Of a stretch of 64,000 nucleotides of DNA, positions 18,956-44,291 are shown piece by piece (positions within the stretch are counted from its first letter, which is position 1; every line of letters begins with the position of its first letter). This stretch comes from Escherichia phage EK010. Position numbers and translations under genes: made by a program. A model generated the notes under the pieces. That model ran no database searches. It worked only from the letters and a program-made list of their open reading frames with translations, and was not told where the DNA came from. The DNA lies in sequence record NC_070981.1. One strand, 5' to 3'.

Positions 18956-20989
18956 ATTTGTGGTATCGTATTAGCTGGCGGCAACATGACCTCAACAGAT
19001 TTGGATATTTTCAACCAACTTCTGTATGCTGGTGTTTTCCGGGGACAGCACTCAACTGGTGTGTTTGGTCAGCGTAAAGGTGAAAAGCAAGTCTTCTCTT
19101 ATAAAGAAGCTCTTCCTTCTTATGCTTTTATGCTCCAGACAGAATATACAAATATTACCAAAGGGCTTACGAACTACGTGGTTCCTCCTTCGTGGATTGT
19201 TGGTCACAGCCGACATGCCACTCGTGGGGCTGTCAATGCTCGAAATGCTCACCCATTTACTCACGGGGATATTACTCTGGTTCATAATGGAACCCTGTTA
19301 GATCAAGATCTCCTTCCTGACAGTAAGCGTTTCGAAGTTGATAGTGAAAACATCTGCCACTCAATTAATACCATTGGAGCAGCAGAGACTATCCAAAAAC
19401 TGGATGGTGCATTCACTTTAATCTGGCATGACGCCAAAGATAACACGCTTCACATTATCCGTAATGATGAGCGTCCTTTCCACCTAGCCCGTTGTGGTTT
19501 AGATTGGTTTGGGGCTTCTGAAGAAGCTATGCTTATGTGGATTTTAGAGCGTTCTAAATCCCACAAGAACCGTATCAATGACCACTTCGAGTGTAAAGTG
19601 GGAACTGAGTATATCTTTGATGTGTCTAACAGTCGTATGACTCTGGTTCAAGAGGTGGAGCACAAGCTTCCGGTTTTTACGGTAACGAGTCGCTGGGGCG
19701 GCTATTACTCGAACTCCTCTCTATATCAGAACCAACAGACAAACAAATCAAGCAGCAGCACAAGCGACATTTACGGAAACAAAGACGACAAGCCCGGCGT
19801 GACAAGCGGAGACATTCGTCGTCGTAAAGCGATTGAAGACCAGAACAAACTGGCTGCCGATCGTGGTCTTCCTTATCGTCGTGATGGTCGTGTGGATATT
19901 ATTCCTCACGAGTTCCATGCTTATAACAACACAGATCGTGGTAAGATGGTTGGTTACATCTACGACGATAAAGCCCAAGAGTATGTCGAAGGGGATGTTC
20001 ACAACGTAGCCAAAGATGAATATCTTAAGGCTCTTGAAAACCCAAAGGTAGTATATCGCGGGACGATTGCTTGTATCTCCGAAGTGGACAGTATGATTCG
20101 CCTCGTACTAACTTCAGGGCTGTTTGTTGATGCTACAGATAAGGAGCCTCAAAGCACTACTGCTGATTTTGATGATGATATCCCTTTTGATGCAGAGGAC
20201 TCCTTCATCACTAAAAATGGTGTAGAAGTCACTCGTAAGTTCTGGGAATCTCACTCTCATGGTGATTGTGGTGGTTGTGATAAGCACATTGACTGGAAAG
20301 ATGCTCGTAAGGCTGTGTTTGCTTATCAAGCATACTGGCATCCAGAATGCTTCGAAGCGTTATCTAAAACCTCTGAAGATGAAGAAGATGTGCCTTTGGG
20401 TGTATGTGCTATCTGTGGTGAAGTCAAGACTGATTTCGAGTTTGACAACGAAATGAGTAAACTTCGTGGTGAAGACGTTTGTTATATCTGCTCCAAAGAA
20501 ATCAAAGATAAAGTAAAGAATGTTACTCTATCTGAAGGTTATATTTGGACTAAAGCAGTAGACACAACCAACCCACGTCGTCCTGAAGTAGCTGTTCGTG
20601 TTGATGAACGTATGCTTAGCCGTATGATCGTAATGGTTAGCTCAGCAAAACGTTCAGGGGATATCACACTTGCAGATGTTCCTAATTCGTATTTGGAAAA
20701 ACGTGGTGGTGATACTTATGCCATCTCTGTTTATGGTCCAAAGAATGCCCCAAAGGAGGTACCCGCTGAGAAAGCGGAGACATTTCCAGAAAAGTCAACC
20801 TCTCTCCGAAAAACAGTTGTCAGTTACGATGGACAACGAACAGCTGAGTTTACAAAAGCCCTCTGGACTTCAATTGGGTTTTGTGCAGTCTGTTATAAAC
20901 AAATTCCGTGGCGTGATGCAGAAACTTGCTCACTAAACAAAGAAAATAGAGTGATCTGTAATTCAGATTACTGTAAAGGTAAACACTAA
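18956..20989 (+). CDS. class-II (Ntn) glutamine amidotransferase with Cys-rich C-terminal extension
   Basis: CGIVLAGG...LQ-like RGQHSTGV...HSRHATRG...NAHPF motifs; Cys nucleophile lies 9 codons upstream of the first ATG (18986), implying ATT start at ~18956 after AGGTGG SD. Confidence 0.8.
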   Translation: MCGIVLAGGNMTSTDLDIFNQLLYAGVFRGQHSTGVFGQRKGEKQVFSYKEALPSYAFMLQTEYTNITKGLTNYVVPPSWIVGHSRHATRGAVNARNAHPFTHGDITLVHNGTLLDQDLLPDSKRFEVDSENICHSINTIGAAETIQKLDGAFTLIWHDAKDNTLHIIRNDERPFHLARCGLDWFGASEEAMLMWILERSKSHKNRINDHFECKVGTEYIFDVSNSRMTLVQEVEHKLPVFTVTSRWGGYYSNSSLYQNQQTNKSSSSTSDIYGNKDDKPGVTSGDIRRRKAIEDQNKLAADRGLPYRRDGRVDIIPHEFHAYNNTDRGKMVGYIYDDKAQEYVEGDVHNVAKDEYLKALENPKVVYRGTIACISEVDSMIRLVLTSGLFVDATDKEPQSTTADFDDDIPFDAEDSFITKNGVEVTRKFWESHSHGDCGGCDKHIDWKDARKAVFAYQAYWHPECFEALSKTSEDEEDVPLGVCAICGEVKTDFEFDNEMSKLRGEDVCYICSKEIKDKVKNVTLSEGYIWTKAVDTTNPRRPEVAVRVDERMLSRMIVMVSSAKRSGDITLADVPNSYLEKRGGDTYAISVYGPKNAPKEVPAEKAETFPEKSTSLRKTVVSYDGQRTAEFTKALWTSIGFCAVCYKQIPWRDAETCSLNKENRVICNSDYCKGKH

Positions 20990-26716: not shown

Positions 26717-28177
26717 ATGATTAAGATTCCATTATCTGAATTGAACCTTCAAGAAGGAGAAGCCCTCAGTGTAGGGCTTGACCTGATTCGTAATTTGATC
26801 AGAGATAACGTAGTCCCTGATGGTATCTATCCTGTTATTGCAGGTGGTGCTATCCGTGATACGTTCTTCCAAAATCGAACTCCGAATGATGTTGATATCT
26901 TCCTAGTTCAAGGAGGGCTTCGTTGGAACACTCGCCAGGAAAATAGCCCTGCTAACGTAGGTAATGCTGCACTGTTCCTTGACAACTTCTTATCTTGGAC
27001 AGAAAGTAAGGGGCTTCAGGTTACATCTCGCCTAGTTCAGCCTGTTAACGGGACAACCTATGCTGAAGCGCTTTTCACTTTCCAAGAGATTCTGGAAATT
27101 GAGATTGATCAAGTGAAGATTCAGATGATGATTAATCTCCCTCTGGATATGGATACTTTGAGTCGTCGCTTTCCTATGATCTGTCAAGGGTTTATGACTC
27201 TTGGTGATTTGTATGTGTCAAACGAAGGTTTGTTTGCAATGTCATACACTCGTGACATTCCTGTGGTATCTAGTCGTGAAATGAAGTATGTTCACAAGAA
27301 GTGGCCTGAAGCAACTGTTGCAGTTTATAGCAGTTCTACCGAATATATGCACCTTGCAATGGGAGCTTTCGGTGAGCCAGAAGTTCACCTGATTAGTGAT
27401 TTAGTTGGACCTATGGCTGGTGTAAATTTATATCAGAATCAGCGTCGTCATTATACCCTGAAGATGATGGAAACTATATTAAACATTCCTCAGGAAAGGG
27501 GTCGTAGCTATCTGGACGAGGAAGTTAACCTACAGACAGAATGGTCTAGTGGATTAACCACTATAGGTGCTGAAGCAATTACGCAGCCTTGGACTCCGGG
27601 AACTAACAGACGAGATCTTCAAGCTTTTAATGAAGAAACTTCTCGAACTGTTCGAGGAGGTGTTGTAGGGTATAACGTACAACCTCATGAAAGACCTCGT
27701 GACACTTTTACTGGCAGTTTTGGTAGTGCACACTCTTCTGGAATGGATACTCGTACATGGCATGTCCAAGGAGGAACTGCTCGTCCTATTCCTTCTCCGT
27801 CAATGGATGATTTGCAGCGTTCTCGTCGTTCATGGGAAACAGTAAGCTCTGTTGTTCAGGGTCTACGTGCTAGTGATGTAGAACGTGTAGAAGTTGGCGA
27901 TGTGCTGGAAGATGGATTGCTGGCGATAGCGGCTCGTGAAGCTGCTCGTACTGGCTTTGCATCTTTAGCTAATGATGCTAACGAAGCTCCTCGCCCTCGC
28001 CGTCGTAGCGGTTTAGCTCACTCTAACACTGAACTAGGTTCAGAACTCCGATCTGCTGCTCGTGAGCTATCTGGTGAGCTTCACAACAACCTAGCAGGTG
28101 TTACACTATCTCGTGAAACAGCTCGTAATATGATTAATAATTTGGCATCATCTGTACAAGGAAACAGAAACTCATGA
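26717..28177 (+). CDS. Pol-beta superfamily nucleotidyltransferase (tRNA-NT/poly(A) polymerase head-like) with R/S-rich C-terminal tail
   Basis: IAGGAIRDTFF...DVDIF matches GGxVRD...DxD head motif. Confidence 0.5.
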   Translation: MIKIPLSELNLQEGEALSVGLDLIRNLIRDNVVPDGIYPVIAGGAIRDTFFQNRTPNDVDIFLVQGGLRWNTRQENSPANVGNAALFLDNFLSWTESKGLQVTSRLVQPVNGTTYAEALFTFQEILEIEIDQVKIQMMINLPLDMDTLSRRFPMICQGFMTLGDLYVSNEGLFAMSYTRDIPVVSSREMKYVHKKWPEATVAVYSSSTEYMHLAMGAFGEPEVHLISDLVGPMAGVNLYQNQRRHYTLKMMETILNIPQERGRSYLDEEVNLQTEWSSGLTTIGAEAITQPWTPGTNRRDLQAFNEETSRTVRGGVVGYNVQPHERPRDTFTGSFGSAHSSGMDTRTWHVQGGTARPIPSPSMDDLQRSRRSWETVSSVVQGLRASDVERVEVGDVLEDGLLAIAAREAARTGFASLANDANEAPRPRRRSGLAHSNTELGSELRSAARELSGELHNNLAGVTLSRETARNMINNLASSVQGNRNS

Positions 28178-28707
28178 GTCTTTTAGGTTCTCAAGAATTA
28201 CACAGCGTTATTGATAGTGGCTTTTTAGATGCGGAGCATAAATATGTTAACGCTGCTAGTGTGGATATCCGTATTGGTGATACTATCCTTGTTGAAGAAC
28301 AGGCTGATGGTATTGTTGACATTGATGCTAAAGAAAACCTCAAGTGGAAAGAAGTGAAAATCCCTGAAGATGGCATTGTCATTACTCCGGGACAGTTCTT
28401 CTTAGCTCACTCTATGGAAGAATTTAACCTTCCAGATAACATCTCAAGCCTGTTTGTACTCCGCTCCTCGATGGCTCGTTGTGGTTTGAACCACCTACAT
28501 GCTGGTTGGGCTGATGCAGGGTTTAACAGCAGTAAGCTAACCTTTGAGTTCCATAACGTTACCCACAATCACAGCTTACGAGTTCGTGCTGGGATGCGTG
28601 TTGGTCAAATGGTTATGTTTGAACACTCTCACGCTGGTGATGATTCCTATGCAGTGAAGGGTCGTTACAATGGCAGCAATGGTGTAGTTGCTTCTAAAGG
28701 TGTATAA
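28174..28707 (+). CDS. dcd: dCTP deaminase family protein
   Basis: SSMARCGL...GWADAGF...LTFEFHN motifs of dCTP deaminase/dUTPase fold. Confidence 0.8.
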   Translation: MSLLGSQELHSVIDSGFLDAEHKYVNAASVDIRIGDTILVEEQADGIVDIDAKENLKWKEVKIPEDGIVITPGQFFLAHSMEEFNLPDNISSLFVLRSSMARCGLNHLHAGWADAGFNSSKLTFEFHNVTHNHSLRVRAGMRVGQMVMFEHSHAGDDSYAVKGRYNGSNGVVASKGV

Positions 28708-29199: not shown

Positions 29200-29529
29200 A
29201 TGTTAGATTTGAGTAAAGTGGCCCCGCCATCTGAAGAGATTAGCAAAGCTAAAGTTATGCAGCAGTTCTATCATCGGGATATGCTTGGTCGTTATATCAA
29301 GAATCGTGATGTTGTTGCATGGTCTATTGGAAATCAAGGTTATCTTCTCAAAGTGTTGCAAGTTACTGGCTCAACAGCCAAGCGAGTCAAAGTCTATGAC
29401 CCTGAAATGGGGCGTTCTAAATCAGTAGACCCTCAGAATTGCATTGTTATCACACAACAGGTCATGGATAACATTGCTCGTAATGTAGCTAATTCAACTA
29501 ACTTAGAAGGGGATGCACCTAATGCATAA
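29200..29529 (+). CDS. hypothetical protein
   Basis: ATG with CAGGAGAGAG SD inside track ORF 29182-29529. Confidence 0.5.
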   Translation: MLDLSKVAPPSEEISKAKVMQQFYHRDMLGRYIKNRDVVAWSIGNQGYLLKVLQVTGSTAKRVKVYDPEMGRSKSVDPQNCIVITQQVMDNIARNVANSTNLEGDAPNA

Positions 29530-30088
29530 TAATGTCTTCGACTTACCTGAACTAACACGAGTGGGTTCTAGCAACCCATTCTCTACTACTGACTCTTCTA
29601 TTTCTCGTCTTGAGGGAATGAATAAACTGATTAGTGGTAACAGCTTAGAACACATCTTATGTGATGTGCAAGCTAACCTTGAACTTCTACACATCAAAGC
29701 AAAGAACTACCACTGGAACGTCTCTGGAGCTGGTTTCCAAGGTGTTCATGGTATGTTCGATGAACTAGAAGATTATGCTCGTGAGGCAGGCGACCGAATA
29801 GCAGAGCGTATGCGCTTCCATTGTGTTAAGGTGGATGCCACTGCCAGTAACTATTTAGGTCACGCTTGGTTCCGAGAAGGTAACGCTGATCTCGACATGG
29901 ACGGTATGCTTTCCGACATGTGCATGACTCTTATGTGTATCATTGAGAAGATGGATGAGTTTGATTCAGACTTGTGCACCTATCCAGTGGACCAGAGTAT
30001 GCTTCAAGAAATTAATGAAGGTCTTGGCAAGTTCTGTTACTTCGTCAAGAGCAACATGTCCCACTCCAGTGGTGATGTGTCTTACTAA
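29513..30088 (+). CDS. Dps-like ferritin-fold protein
   Basis: KNYHWNVSGAGFQGVHGMFDELEDYAREAGDRIAERM matches Dps ferroxidase-site region. Confidence 0.7.
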   Translation: MHLMHNNVFDLPELTRVGSSNPFSTTDSSISRLEGMNKLISGNSLEHILCDVQANLELLHIKAKNYHWNVSGAGFQGVHGMFDELEDYAREAGDRIAERMRFHCVKVDATASNYLGHAWFREGNADLDMDGMLSDMCMTLMCIIEKMDEFDSDLCTYPVDQSMLQEINEGLGKFCYFVKSNMSHSSGDVSY

Positions 30089-31229: not shown

Positions 31230-31697
31230 ATGATACAAGACGACTTGGAATACAACCCTAAGACTGGAGACTTCTTCTGGAAGAACACAAAAGGTCGAAG
31301 GGTTAAAGGAAATCAAGCTGGGTATGTATCTTCTCTAGGTTATCGTTACATTGAGCATGAAGGGAAAAGCTACAGAGCTTGTCGCCTTGCTTGGTTCTTT
31401 GTTCATGGAAAGTTTCCTGAGTTTGAAATTGACCACATCGACCAGAACAAACTTAATGACTCAATTGATAACCTAAGAGATGTGAATCCATCTACTAACT
31501 GCCATAACAGAAGGCAGTACGATGTTGATAACAAGATAGGAAATCTTCCTAGAGGTGTGTATCTTCGTAAGACAGCTTCTGGTGATAAATATCGAGCCAT
31601 TATCGGCGTCAAAGGTAAGAATATATACTTAGGGACTTTTGCTTCTTGTGAAGAGGCAGAAGAAGTTTACAACAAGGAGAAGTTGAAGTATGTCTGA
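31230..31697 (+). CDS. HNH homing endonuclease with AP2-like DNA-binding domain
   Basis: EIDHIDQNKLNDSIDNLRDVNPSTNCHNRR; paralog of 42035 gene. Confidence 0.8.
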   Translation: MIQDDLEYNPKTGDFFWKNTKGRRVKGNQAGYVSSLGYRYIEHEGKSYRACRLAWFFVHGKFPEFEIDHIDQNKLNDSIDNLRDVNPSTNCHNRRQYDVDNKIGNLPRGVYLRKTASGDKYRAIIGVKGKNIYLGTFASCEEAEEVYNKEKLKYV

Positions 31698-32340
31698 TTT
31701 TTTAAAAGCAACACTGGTAGAGCACATGGGTTCCGACAAATCTGTGGTCAATGCAGCAAGGGTTTCCTTTGGTGTGACACGAGATGGTGATCTGAACGAA
31801 CGTGACGAGCGGTTGATTAAATTCTTAGCTCGGGAACGTCATGTGACTCCTTTTCGACACCCTCAAATCACCTTTCGGTGTAAGGCTCCCATTGCAATTG
31901 CTAGACAACTCAATAAACACCAAGTTGGATTCTCATGGAACGAAATGTCCCGGCGGTATAAAGATGGAGCAGTTGAACTCTTCATCCCTAAAGAGATTTT
32001 TGAAAGACCTTCGGACCTCCATGCAGGTGCGGGGAATCTCCTTACCACAGGAGCACAAAACTCTGCACTAGTTCTGATTAATCGGGCATACGAAACAGCT
32101 CTTGAGTCGTATGATGAATTGATTAAGTTTATCGCTCCAGAGCAAGCTCGATTTGTTCTACCTCAAGGTATGATCACGGAGTGGGTGTGGACAGGTTCTT
32201 TATATGGCTGGTCAGAGTTATGTCGTCAGCGACTGTCCGACCATGCTCAGTATGAAGTACGAGTGTTCGCATCAACGGTCGATGAAGAGCTTCGTAAACT
32301 TTTCCCAATCTCATGGGATGCACTACGTGAAGCCCACTAA
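31690..32340 (+). CDS. thyX: ThyX-family (flavin-dependent thymidylate synthase) homolog with divergent active-site motif
   Basis: Aligns along its length with ThyX (AARVSF...TPF.H...KAPI..ARQ...S.NE.S.RY) but canonical RHR is K-H-Q here. Confidence 0.75.
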   Translation: MSDFLKATLVEHMGSDKSVVNAARVSFGVTRDGDLNERDERLIKFLARERHVTPFRHPQITFRCKAPIAIARQLNKHQVGFSWNEMSRRYKDGAVELFIPKEIFERPSDLHAGAGNLLTTGAQNSALVLINRAYETALESYDELIKFIAPEQARFVLPQGMITEWVWTGSLYGWSELCRQRLSDHAQYEVRVFASTVDEELRKLFPISWDALREAH

Positions 32341-32347
32341 AGTATGT

Positions 32348-32378
32348 AGCTTCTGTCAAAAGCAGAAGCTTCTTATCA
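32348..32378 (+). terminator. intrinsic terminator
   Basis: AGCTTCTG/CAGAAGCT perfect 8-bp stem, T-rich tail. Confidence 0.6.
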
Positions 32379-32511
32379 ATTTCAAGCTGAACGAGGAAAC
32401 AGGTTTGGGTCATGCTTTTTGTCATGATTGCAGGCACTACCTTGAACAGAAGCAACACATAAACTGGTTGCATTACTACCATCCAACAACATTCAAATTT
32501 AAGGTTGTTAA

Positions 32512-32715
32512 ATGAGAACATTGTGGACTCTTGACTGTCAAGATGATGAAGGAGAGCGTTGGACTTGGAAATATTTCCTAGATAAACCAACACCTGATAA
32601 CCCTGCTTTAGATTTTACTTCATATGAAGATGCTAAGAAGTTAGTAAACGGAGAAAAGGTTTGGTCTCCGGATGATGAAGTTCAATACTTTTTAACAGAA
32701 CGGAAATTTTCATAA
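32512..32715 (+). CDS. hypothetical protein (67 aa)
   Basis: Track ORF. Confidence 0.5.
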   Translation: MRTLWTLDCQDDEGERWTWKYFLDKPTPDNPALDFTSYEDAKKLVNGEKVWSPDDEVQYFLTERKFS

Positions 32716-43045: not shown

Positions 43046-43695
43046 TGGCGAAGAAGACAACACCTACAAGATATCGAATTCATGGAATCCCTATTAAGTA
43101 TATCTCAAACTATGAAGAGTTTTACAGAGTGAACTGGAAAGTGGTTCACAAGTTCTTCATGTATGATATCAGGGATTATCATGAAGCAGAAGATGTGGCA
43201 CAAGAAGTGCTCTTGAATGCTTGGAGATTTGTCTTCGCTAAGCAGGATGAGAGAGTCCTAGAGGATGAGAAAGACCAAGAGCATATGACTTATCGAGTCA
43301 AGAACATTATCTGGTCGATTCGTTCTAATCGTCAGACAGTTGGAGACCGACGTATCTACTCTATTCCAGAGGCTGATATGTTTAGACCTCCTGAGATGAA
43401 CTCATGGGAAAGTCCTTTAGAAATTGCGATGGATAAGCATGATTCTACTGGAGACCCATTCTTGGAATCTAGAATCTTTTTCTTCTTCCAAGACCTGAGT
43501 GACATTATGGAAAACCGTAAGATGGCAAGCATGTTCTCAATGCTCTTTCTCGGCATCCCACATGATCACATCCAGCAGGAGCTGGGAATTTCACACGGAA
43601 CCTTCTATCGCCGTTATGCAGAGAATCGTGATCTGTATGAAGCGGTAGTAGAGAAGCACTTTGATAAAGAAGATCTTCAAGGGATGATTCAATAA
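43042..43695 (+). CDS. phage-encoded sigma factor (sigma70/ECF-like)
   Basis: Region-2-like [15 protein letters not shown] and C-terminal HTH-like region. Confidence 0.65.
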
Positions 43696-44291
43696 TGAGT
43701 AAACCATTAGTAGTAATTCTGAATGGACCACCGGGTTGTGGTAAAGATACAATCGCTAATGCTTGGCTAGAATTCACTAAAGAGAACATTGAATTTAAGC
43801 CACATATAAAGGCTTTTAAGGAGCCTATGTACCGAGTTGCTGCTGCTGCATTAGGTATTCCTATTGACGAGTTCATGGAGCTGTATAGCGACCGTGAGTG
43901 GAAAGAACGAAGCCGTCCTGAATGGGGCGGTAAGTCAGTTCGAGATTTGATGATTGCAACTAGTGAGAGCTACTTGAAGCCAATGTTTGGTGATACCTGT
44001 ATGGGTAAGTTGGCTGTTAGTAGTATCAAACGACAACTGTTAGGACAGAAAGATGTTATCGTCTTCTCTGATGGTGGATTCAAAGCAGAAGTTTCAGAAC
44101 TGGAAGAACAATTCCATGTTCAAGTAGTTCAGATTCTTCGTGATGGTTGCACTTTTGAAGGAGACTCTCGGTCTTACATCGAAGGCAGTCAGAGAAACAC
44201 ATATTACCTAGTAAACGATTCTACTGTAGAAGATGCAATAGACTATTTAAATTGGATTGTTGTACGGACACGGAGAGATCTCTATGTCTGA
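43695..44291 (+). CDS. P-loop kinase (possible dNMP kinase)
   Basis: Walker A GPPGCGKDT. Confidence 0.55.
   Translation: MSKPLVVILNGPPGCGKDTIANAWLEFTKENIEFKPHIKAFKEPMYRVAAAALGIPIDEFMELYSDREWKERSRPEWGGKSVRDLMIATSESYLKPMFGDTCMGKLAVSSIKRQLLGQKDVIVFSDGGFKAEVSELEEQFHVQVVQILRDGCTFEGDSRSYIEGSQRNTYYLVNDSTVEDAIDYLNWIVVRTRRDLYV

Follow-up and report, generated by a model that had tools for sequence, protein, structure and literature searches.

R-H-R-X7-S has been described as the 'ThyX motif' of the flavin-dependent thymidylate synthases (Myllykallio 2002, as quoted in PMC2826268). In the enzymes that carry it, here termed class 1, the RHR residues hydrogen-bond to FAD at the AMP phosphate, the ribityl chain and the FMN phosphate, and the first arginine makes further contacts to the substrate and to the isoalloxazine ring (PMC6514825). 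In the reduced enzyme of T. maritima (Tm ThyX) R78 is directed towards N1/C2=O of the flavin and stabilizes FADH- (PMC11940539). Accounts differ for R80, which has been listed together with R78 as a direct ligand of dUMP (PMC3498832). In ThyX of PBCV-1 the side chain of Gln89 can fill the dUMP-phosphate pocket (PMC3498832). The one documented ThyX homologue with an altered substrate range is PolB (PMC5003785). Its Arg86, which corresponds to the first motif arginine, hydrogen-bonds to O3' of the ribose; residues equivalent to R74, Q75, S88, residue 89, R90 and R147 bind the phosphate of the substrate (PMC5003785).

The window analysed here comprises 64,000 nucleotides of Escherichia phage EK010 (NC_070981.1). 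It is the reverse complement of GenBank record OP293233.1 with 100% identity, such that window position and record position add up to 77,851. OP293233.1 is Escherichia phage E20-1, 77,938 bp, a Kuravirus of the Gordonclarkvirinae. The gene under study is:

31690..32340, plus strand: thyX, 216 aa; class 2 as defined below (K-H-x ... S-R-R-Y); matched by PF02511, TIGR02170 and phrog_85

The reading frame runs from ATG to TAA and is preceded, at a distance of a few bases, by an AAGGAG ribosome-binding site. An initial annotation had claimed a full-length ThyX homologue, which was borne out by two family profiles and by HMMER alignments. Pfam Thy1 (PF02511) matched residues 8-206 with an E-value of 6.8e-44 and 150.4 bits (cutoff 24.8) and was covered from position 1 to 190 of its 191 positions. 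The protein passed the NCBIfam equivalog model for thyX, TIGR02170, with 126.4 bits (cutoff 87.9) and matched phrog_85 (thymidylate synthase) with an E-value of 3.8e-63. The HMMER E-values were 6e-26 against T. maritima ThyX (1kq4) and 5e-29 against T. thermophilus ThyX (6j61, Tth ThyX). An AlphaFold2 model (pLDDT 88.5, pTM 0.82) was superimposed by Foldseek on Tm ThyX with TM-scores of 0.80-0.83, and its top 50 PDB matches were ThyX in 50 of 50 cases with TM-scores of 0.73-0.83. A Pfam search of the product gave no match besides PF02511, and the modelled fold is that of ThyX, not of ThyA. Phage pathways of DNA hypermodification use ThyA homologues as their pyrimidine hydroxymethylases and methylases. 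Record OP293233.1 labels the same gene 'thymidylate synthase ThyX'; the annotation thus already exists, and the profile matches and predicted fold mark the protein as an ordinary ThyX.

The RHR position was aligned to Tm ThyX by HMMER and MAFFT; the Tm numbering in the HMMER alignment takes account of the 12 tag residues that the PDB chain carries. The motif and the residues of the putative active site are encoded as follows:

31840..31842, plus strand: H51, equivalent of Tm His53, the folate/flavin-stacking histidine (role: PMC11940539); kept in 123 of 125 class 2 representatives
31903..31908, plus strand: R72-Q73, aligned with Tm R74-Q75, contacts to the dUMP phosphate and base (the PolB equivalents R82/H83 are ligands of the substrate phosphate, PMC5003785)
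31915..31923, plus strand: K76-H77-Q78, codons AAA CAC CAA, equivalent of Tm R78-H79-R80
31948..31959, plus strand: S87-R88-R89-Y90, the substrate-recognition peptide, codons TCC CGG CGG TAT
32149..32151, plus strand: R154, equivalent of Tm R147 (dUMP phosphate); invariant in 125 of 125 representatives
32230..32232, plus strand: R181, equivalent of Tm R174 (recognition of uracil O2/O4); invariant in 125 of 125 representatives

In the HMMER alignment the query segment ARQLNKHQVGFSWNEMSRRY lies beneath ARQWFRHRIA-SYNELSGRY. The claim that the RHR position reads K-H-Q was thus exact, including the quoted string LNKHQVGFSWNEMS, and no alternative placement of RHR elsewhere in the protein emerged; there is an extra, class-specific arginine, R88, beside the motif serine. 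S87, R89 and Y90 correspond to Tm S88, R90 and Y91, and R88 occupies the position of Tm Gly89. The spacing from the motif to the serine is 8 residues compared to 7 in the RHR enzymes, so that instead of the literal R-H-R-X7-S the phage protein reads K-H-Q-X8-S. On the other hand, the equivalents of Tm H53, R74, Q75, E86, S88, R90, Y91, R147 and R174 are all present as H51, R72, Q73, E85, S87, R89, Y90, R154 and R181, as is that of Tm S30. Because of the profile matches, the fold and the catalytic residues we keep the protein in the ThyX family despite its departure from the literal motif.

The variant is shared by the relatives of the phage protein. The best 120 homologues from a collection of 5.8 billion proteins, down to 53% identity, had K-H-Q throughout save for one K-S-Q. 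An alignment of 34 relatives down to 53% identity had K76 and Q78 invariant and H77 nearly so; its 69 invariant columns included every catalytic residue. As it appears in these alignments, the K-H-Q substitution is neither chance nor sequencing noise. A wider, exhaustive HMMER search against 1.84 billion representatives of 50%-identity clusters yielded 7,111 relatives, the best 150 of which (40-54% identity) were examined. Wherever the motif could be read among these best 150 (105 by pattern match, 125 by alignment), RHR did not occur. At the first position K far outnumbered R, at the second H was more frequent than S, the third was variable (Q, T, K, H, V, E and others), and S-R-R-Y followed. 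We refer to this grouping, [K/R]-[H/S/Y]-x ... S-R-R-Y, as class 2 ThyX.

Residues were counted in 125 of the representatives aligned with Tm and Tth ThyX. The equivalents of Tm S30, H53, Q75, E86, S88, R90, Y91, R147 and R174 were each conserved in at least 120 of the 125, and that of R74 in 106. Position 78 was K in 100 and R in 24. The six commonest residues at position 80 did not include arginine, yet one sequence (P0197) read K-S-R. At position 89 arginine was found in 121 of 125, compared to glycine in both Tm and Tth, and all 11 class 1 sequences examined had G, A or Q there. A panel of 17 sequences, composed of 14 GenBank phage ThyX drawn from the whole tblastn ranking, Tm, Tth and the query, separated without exception. 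RHR went with G/A/Q89 in nine of nine (Tm, Tth, ACP17, Bxz1, RcLkye, DS-1410Ws-06, P-SSM2, HRTV-18 and Schwartz33), and K-[H/Y]-x went with R89 in eight of eight (the query, Faunus, TC6, Barba6A, Stanimal, Jayan, P184 and ICBM3). A neighbor-joining tree of 61 sequences contained a single bipartition that split 11 of 11 class 1 sequences from the other 50; in this set class 2 sequences had a mean identity of 0.44 to one another and of 0.31 to those of class 1. The phage protein lacks arginine at position 80 (Q78), has arginine at position 89 (R88) and lies on the class 2 side of this split. Across the sequences compared, then, K-H-Q is the regular signature of a second ThyX class, which is large and phylogenetically coherent, and not a lesion private to this phage.

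Literature searches turned up neither a class 2 ThyX that had been assayed or solved nor a described K-H-Q variant, and every PDB relative with a readable motif was class 1. The thyX gene of a Borrelia plasmid, considered as an experimentally tested class 2 enzyme, proved to be class 1 with RHR...SGRY.

Class 2 is also found outside phages. We scanned GTDB genomes, one for each species, with a 13-sequence alignment as the query and a search pattern that included WNEVSRRY, and obtained 137 class 2 relatives; since the pattern contained these letters, the presence of Arg89 in 77 of 77 scan loci is not independent evidence. The lineages included about 11 Dependentiae/TM6/Babeliales, six Dehalococcoidia/SAR202, three Poribacteria and three Nitrospinota, in addition to Spirochaetia and Neomarinimicrobiota. 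A complete Spirochaetia chromosome (OZ251568.1, a MAG; locus L018) carries an exact KHQ...SRRY gene next to pyrD (dihydroorotate dehydrogenase) and a pyrF/pyrE-like gene that joins an OMP decarboxylase domain to a phosphoribosyltransferase domain. Two TM6 genomes have a thyX that overlaps with the dcd (dCTP deaminase) downstream of it, and one of these pairs adjoins a gene for a class II aminoacyl-tRNA synthetase. The copies of Nitrospinota, SAR202 and Poribacteria lie amid housekeeping genes such as ispH and that of a 2-oxoacid dehydrogenase E2. On the Staphylococcus aureus plasmid pCKFA-361 a class 2 thyX (KYV...SRRY) begins at the last base of dfrE, which codes for a trimethoprim-resistant DHFR. 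One class 2 protein is fused to a dNMP-kinase-like domain, and inteins are inserted in class 2 genes at active-site positions, i.e. inside the motif loop, before the serine and after the catalytic histidine.

The proteins of L018, TM6 and pCKFA-361 pass TIGR02170. Because class 2, including such cellular genes that pass the equivalog model, lacks RHR, the literal RHR-X7-S defines class 1 only. From the housekeeping, pyrimidine-pathway, dcd and DHFR contexts it would follow that the product of cellular class 2 enzymes must be ordinary dTMP. The best reading of these genes is that class 2 enzymes would be ordinary thymidylate synthases, their housekeeping use in bacteria included.

How might the substituted residues function? 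The initial annotation had taken the loss of both arginines to mean altered phosphate or nucleotide recognition. This finds no support. RHR mainly binds the phosphates and the ribityl chain of FAD and stabilizes the reduced flavin; the first arginine alone touches the substrate (PMC6514825, PMC11940539, PMC5003785) and is conservatively replaced by lysine here; and the residues that read dUMP are retained. K76 would keep the positive charge of class 1 Arg78 at flavin N1/C2=O and ribose O3', while Q78 would offer a hydrogen bond where Arg80 binds an FAD phosphate. R88 may put a new guanidinium group at the dUMP-phosphate pocket, into which residue 89 of solved class 1 enzymes extends with its backbone or side chain, and thereby offset the one lost. 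Such a compensation of R80 by R88 is only partly tenable: the covariation of positions 80 and 89 is observed, the geometry proposed. The compensation is not obligatory because a few class 2 sequences (P0122, P0139, P0266) have Met or Leu in place of R88. A strict exchange of R80 for R88 is also weakened by at least two sequences with arginine at both positions, L058 (K-H-R) and P0197 (K-S-R).

The dCTP deaminase and the kinase reported earlier for this genome could both be confirmed:

28174..28707, plus strand: dcd, dCTP deaminase, likely supplier of deoxyuridine nucleotides; PF22769 (E 1.2e-34), TIGR02274 (106.8 bits, cutoff 92.8), phrog_1663
43695..44291, plus strand: dNMP kinase, likely for dTMP to dTDP; phrog_139, deoxynucleoside monophosphate kinase (E 3.4e-40); annotated as dNMP kinase in OP293233.1

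The kinase had no match in Pfam or NCBIfam. The TM6 thyX-dcd pairs represent in cells the same pairing of enzymes as in the phage. In Erwinia phage Faunus (Chaseviridae) a class 2 thyX adjoins the genes for primase/helicase and DNA polymerase, and the 6 kb on each flank contain neither dcd nor a nucleotidyltransferase gene.

Thus we favor the view that the reading frame very probably encodes a functional flavin-dependent thymidylate synthase that converts dUMP to dTMP in the canonical manner, K-H-Q being its class 2 signature. By homology the enzyme would form the usual FAD-containing homotetramer; NAD(P)H would reduce the flavin, flavin N5 would relay the methylene group of CH2-THF to C5 of dUMP, and dTMP and THF would be released. 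The phage dCTP deaminase would supply dUTP from dCTP, host Dut would hydrolyze it to dUMP for ThyX, and the dTMP formed would then be phosphorylated to dTTP by the dNMP kinase of the phage and the Ndk of the host. The effect would be more dTTP for a genome of 42% G+C, independent of host ThyA or DHFR. Of the two pathways considered in the initial annotation the dTMP route is favored, while a non-canonical pyrimidine gains no support from a motif that is class-wide and occurs in housekeeping contexts. Together, dCTP deaminase, ThyX and dNMP kinase would make up a standard route from dCTP to dTTP, and the K-H-Q motif is no evidence of exotic DNA chemistry.

A class 2 enzyme that still acts as a thymidylate synthase might handle its cofactor differently, having lost Arg80, a ligand of the FAD phosphate, and gained R88. 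FMN instead of FAD, a more weakly bound or exchangeable flavin, or another preference for the reductant would be in line with the contacts of class 1 RHR to the AMP phosphate and ribityl chain of FAD and to the FMN phosphate (PMC6514825). Such a difference would also fit the third motif position, which varies among class 2 sequences (Q, T, K, H, V, E), and the motif loop, whose pLDDT of about 71 is the lowest in the AlphaFold2 model. It would likewise fit the lack of conservation in class 2 at Tm positions E58 and R165, which we take to be AMP-side contacts of FAD. However, AMP-side positions vary within class 1, too, Tth having His at 165 and Asp at 163, and for that reason their variability says little. 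We regard a cofactor difference as distinctly unlikely.

Very unlikely, in our estimate, is a change in substrate or chemistry, by which the enzyme would make a non-canonical pyrimidine, e.g. 5-hydroxymethyl-dUMP by hydration of the exocyclic methylene, or methylate dCMP or UMP, with the product being phosphorylated by the phage kinase and built into virion DNA and so explaining resistance to restriction-modification (RM). PolB demonstrates that a ThyX-fold enzyme can have a widened range as a UMP/dUMP methylase (PMC5003785), but this known substrate variant is RHR-type class 1 with its specificity in other loops. The phage encodes a dNMP kinase and an orphan nucleotidyltransferase of 486 aa; yet the ThyX of Faunus belongs to this class, too, and its gene has neither dcd nor a nucleotidyltransferase gene within 6 kb, and positions 28000-77938 of OP293233.1 hold no annotated hypermodification genes. 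Sites for EcoRI (12), EcoRV (26) and EcoP1 (about 106) are present in the window at roughly the expected frequency, which counts in favor of this reading. The depletion of palindromes graded by G+C recurs in T7 with its unmodified DNA. The motif also occurs in class 2 enzymes of cells and plasmids whose genes lie in canonical pyrimidine and folate contexts, and every residue that reads uracil, ribose or phosphate is conserved.

The Gordonclarkvirinae are reported to be unusually resistant to RM systems, with no modification pathway known for them, and dU-containing DNA has been raised as a speculation (BASEL paper, PMC11990801). One could imagine class 2 as mechanistically distinct, with a rebuilt flavin/phosphate site and, in the Gordonclarkvirinae, a product such as 5-hydroxymethyl-dUMP that leads to thymidine modification with the aid of the orphan nucleotidyltransferase. 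This would explain the resistance, but we consider it highly improbable. The orphan nucleotidyltransferase adjoins dcd and had no match in Pfam, NCBIfam or PDB sequences. For 6-bp palindromes with 0, 2, 4 and 6 A/T positions the observed/expected ratios in the window were 0.15, 0.44, 0.87 and 0.94, and in T7, in the same order, 0.28, 0.22, 0.85 and 1.08. Palindrome depletion as a sign of protected A/T positions was rejected on account of this like gradient in T7. Literature searches for a tested phage class 2 ThyX, for ThyX in TM6 and for phiEco32-like DNA that had been digested with restriction enzymes or analysed for its nucleosides yielded nothing decisive. An intact and strongly constrained ThyX argues against dU replacing T in the Gordonclarkvirinae; hence the cause of RM resistance is to be sought elsewhere, and the ThyX motif is no evidence on it.

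That the gene is a decayed, catalytically dead relic, being lost or kept for a non-enzymatic role, is extremely improbable: the literal RHR-X7-S is broken at two of three motif positions, host ThyA makes the gene not strictly needed and ThyX of B. burgdorferi (S-G-C-Y, Arg90 lost) demonstrates that decay can occur, but the 69 invariant columns with their catalytic residues in 34 relatives down to 53% identity, the conservation of the signature over hundreds of divergent clusters, the inteins that interrupt class 2 genes at active-site positions, and a score above the TIGR02170 equivalog cutoff all speak against it.

Taken by itself the question of the motif matters little, as the gene is already annotated as ThyX and resembles an ordinary enzyme of nucleotide supply. 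Yet RHR-X7-S covers one of two classes, so that filters built on it can yield too low a count of ThyX in phages, candidate phyla and plasmids. The restriction of solved structures with a readable motif to class 1 is relevant to work on ThyX inhibitors.

With respect to known systems, PolB (PDB 4P5A-C), the UMP/dUMP C5-methylase of polyoxin biosynthesis, has the ThyX fold and the FAD/CH2-THF chemistry in common with the phage enzyme. It owes its specificity to Loop 1, Loop 2 and Tyr99/124/126 and not to the RHR position (PMC5003785), and the phage protein is less similar to PolB (4P5A, E 4.7e-18) than to Tm ThyX (E 6e-26). PolB (4P5A) was tried as a model of class 2 or of a variant function and set aside, as the reported residues Arg86 and S96-A97-R98 fit class 1. 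The characterized viral ThyX, A674R of PBCV-1 (PDB 2CFA, 4FZB), likewise has about 216 aa and supplies dTMP for an A+T-richer viral genome; it is distant from the phage protein (E 1e-8), and its glutamine at 89 is a class 1 feature (PMC3498832). Tm ThyX (FDTS, TM0449; PDB 1KQ4, 1O26, 4GT9, 8REN and others) is like the phage protein in fold over about 210 columns, about 33% identical and of the same length class, and presumably catalyzes the same reaction. In contrast to its R78-H79-R80 and Gly89 the phage enzyme has K76-H77-Q78 and Arg88 with one extra loop residue, and the two are on opposite sides of the split between class 1 and class 2. The ThyX proteins of L018, of TM6/Dependentiae (L072 and L084) and of pCKFA-361 are 38-45% identical to the phage protein and have K/R-H/Y-x ... 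S-R-R-Y in common with it; they differ in that their genes are embedded in pyrimidine, dcd or DHFR contexts, whereas the phage thyX lies in a replication module.

The gene for the flavin-dependent thymidylate synthase ThyX (31690-32340, + strand, 216 aa) is overlapped at both ends by other reading frames, which are given here together with the upstream genes under consideration.

18986-20989, + strand: class II glutamine amidotransferase, 667 aa
21439-22674, + strand: ATP-grasp (RimK-like) protein, 411 aa
26717-28177, + strand: "nucleotidyltransferase", 486 aa; phrog_12715 (E = 6e-154)
29513-30088, + strand: ORF66, named "integrase" in GenBank; ferritin-like domain (E = 5e-8)
31230-31697, + strand: HNH_3 homing-endonuclease gene; PF13392 (E = 7.5e-10)
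32318-32515, + strand: 65-aa ORF with a CxxC...CxxC zinc-ribbon pattern; weak Pfam match to Zn_ribbon_Elf1 (E = 1.2e-3, below cutoff)

The 3' end of the HNH_3 gene overlaps the start of thyX by 8 nt. Because phage relatives match this stretch only piecemeal, the alignments suggest that the HNH_3 gene is a mobile insertion beside a conserved gene of nucleotide metabolism. On the other side, the last 23 nt of thyX are shared with the zinc-ribbon ORF, which occupies the 171-nt gap to the next annotated gene and carries no gene annotation in GenBank. The "integrase" label of ORF66 is probably a misannotation, since the ferritin-like domain was its sole Pfam match. The label is consequential for a lytic phage under consideration for therapy.

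Inteins were found at three active-site positions in class 2 ThyX genes among the cluster representatives examined (P0121, P0209, P0257, P0225, P0234, P0251 and P0266). P0121 serves as an example with KHQSGF|C...HN|SWNE, and in P0234, P0251 and P0266 the insertion follows the catalytic histidine. P0219 is a fusion of class 2 ThyX with a P-loop dNMP-kinase-like domain.

Class 2 thyX was also present on the Staphylococcus aureus plasmid pCKFA-361 (L097, 1971-3169 for the gene pair), directly 3' of the trimethoprim-resistance gene dfrE with an overlap of 1 nt; in a tblastn search, 17 plasmid records from Staphylococcus matched thyX. The pair may constitute a DHFR plus ThyX antifolate-bypass cassette. 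The 43.7-kb Sphingobium plasmid pCFD-1-5 (L100) carries a thyX with KHQ...SRRY. Its neighbours there are MazG, a gene with an endonuclease domain and a large DNA-directed RNA polymerase gene, and this "plasmid" looks like a phage or phage-plasmid. In thyX of Borrelia burgdorferi lp54 (L099, 268-1065) the motif reads S-G-C-Y. The replacement of the substrate-binding Arg90 by cysteine, while B. hermsii retains S-G-R-Y, suggests that ThyX of the Lyme-disease species is inactive.

Both the glutamine amidotransferase and the ATP-grasp gene are located in the early/replication region. The nucleotidyltransferase gene is flanked by the gene for the exonuclease subunit of DNA polymerase and by dcd, the start of which it overlaps by 4 nt. 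The protein had no sequence match in Pfam, NCBIfam or PDB; a role in DNA modification has been suspected for the gene in the BASEL paper (PMC11990801).

Across the whole window, 6-bp palindromes containing G+C were strongly under-represented: GAGCTC and CTGCAG were absent (16.7 and 11.9 expected, respectively). The shorter site CCWGG occurred 3 times (72 expected) and GATC 129 times (282 expected). Site counts over the same stretch showed no depletion of EcoRI, EcoRV or EcoP1 sites. The G+C gradient in palindrome depletion was the same in T7, a phage with unmodified DNA. Thus, the depletion in the window is attributable to ordinary RM-driven site avoidance.
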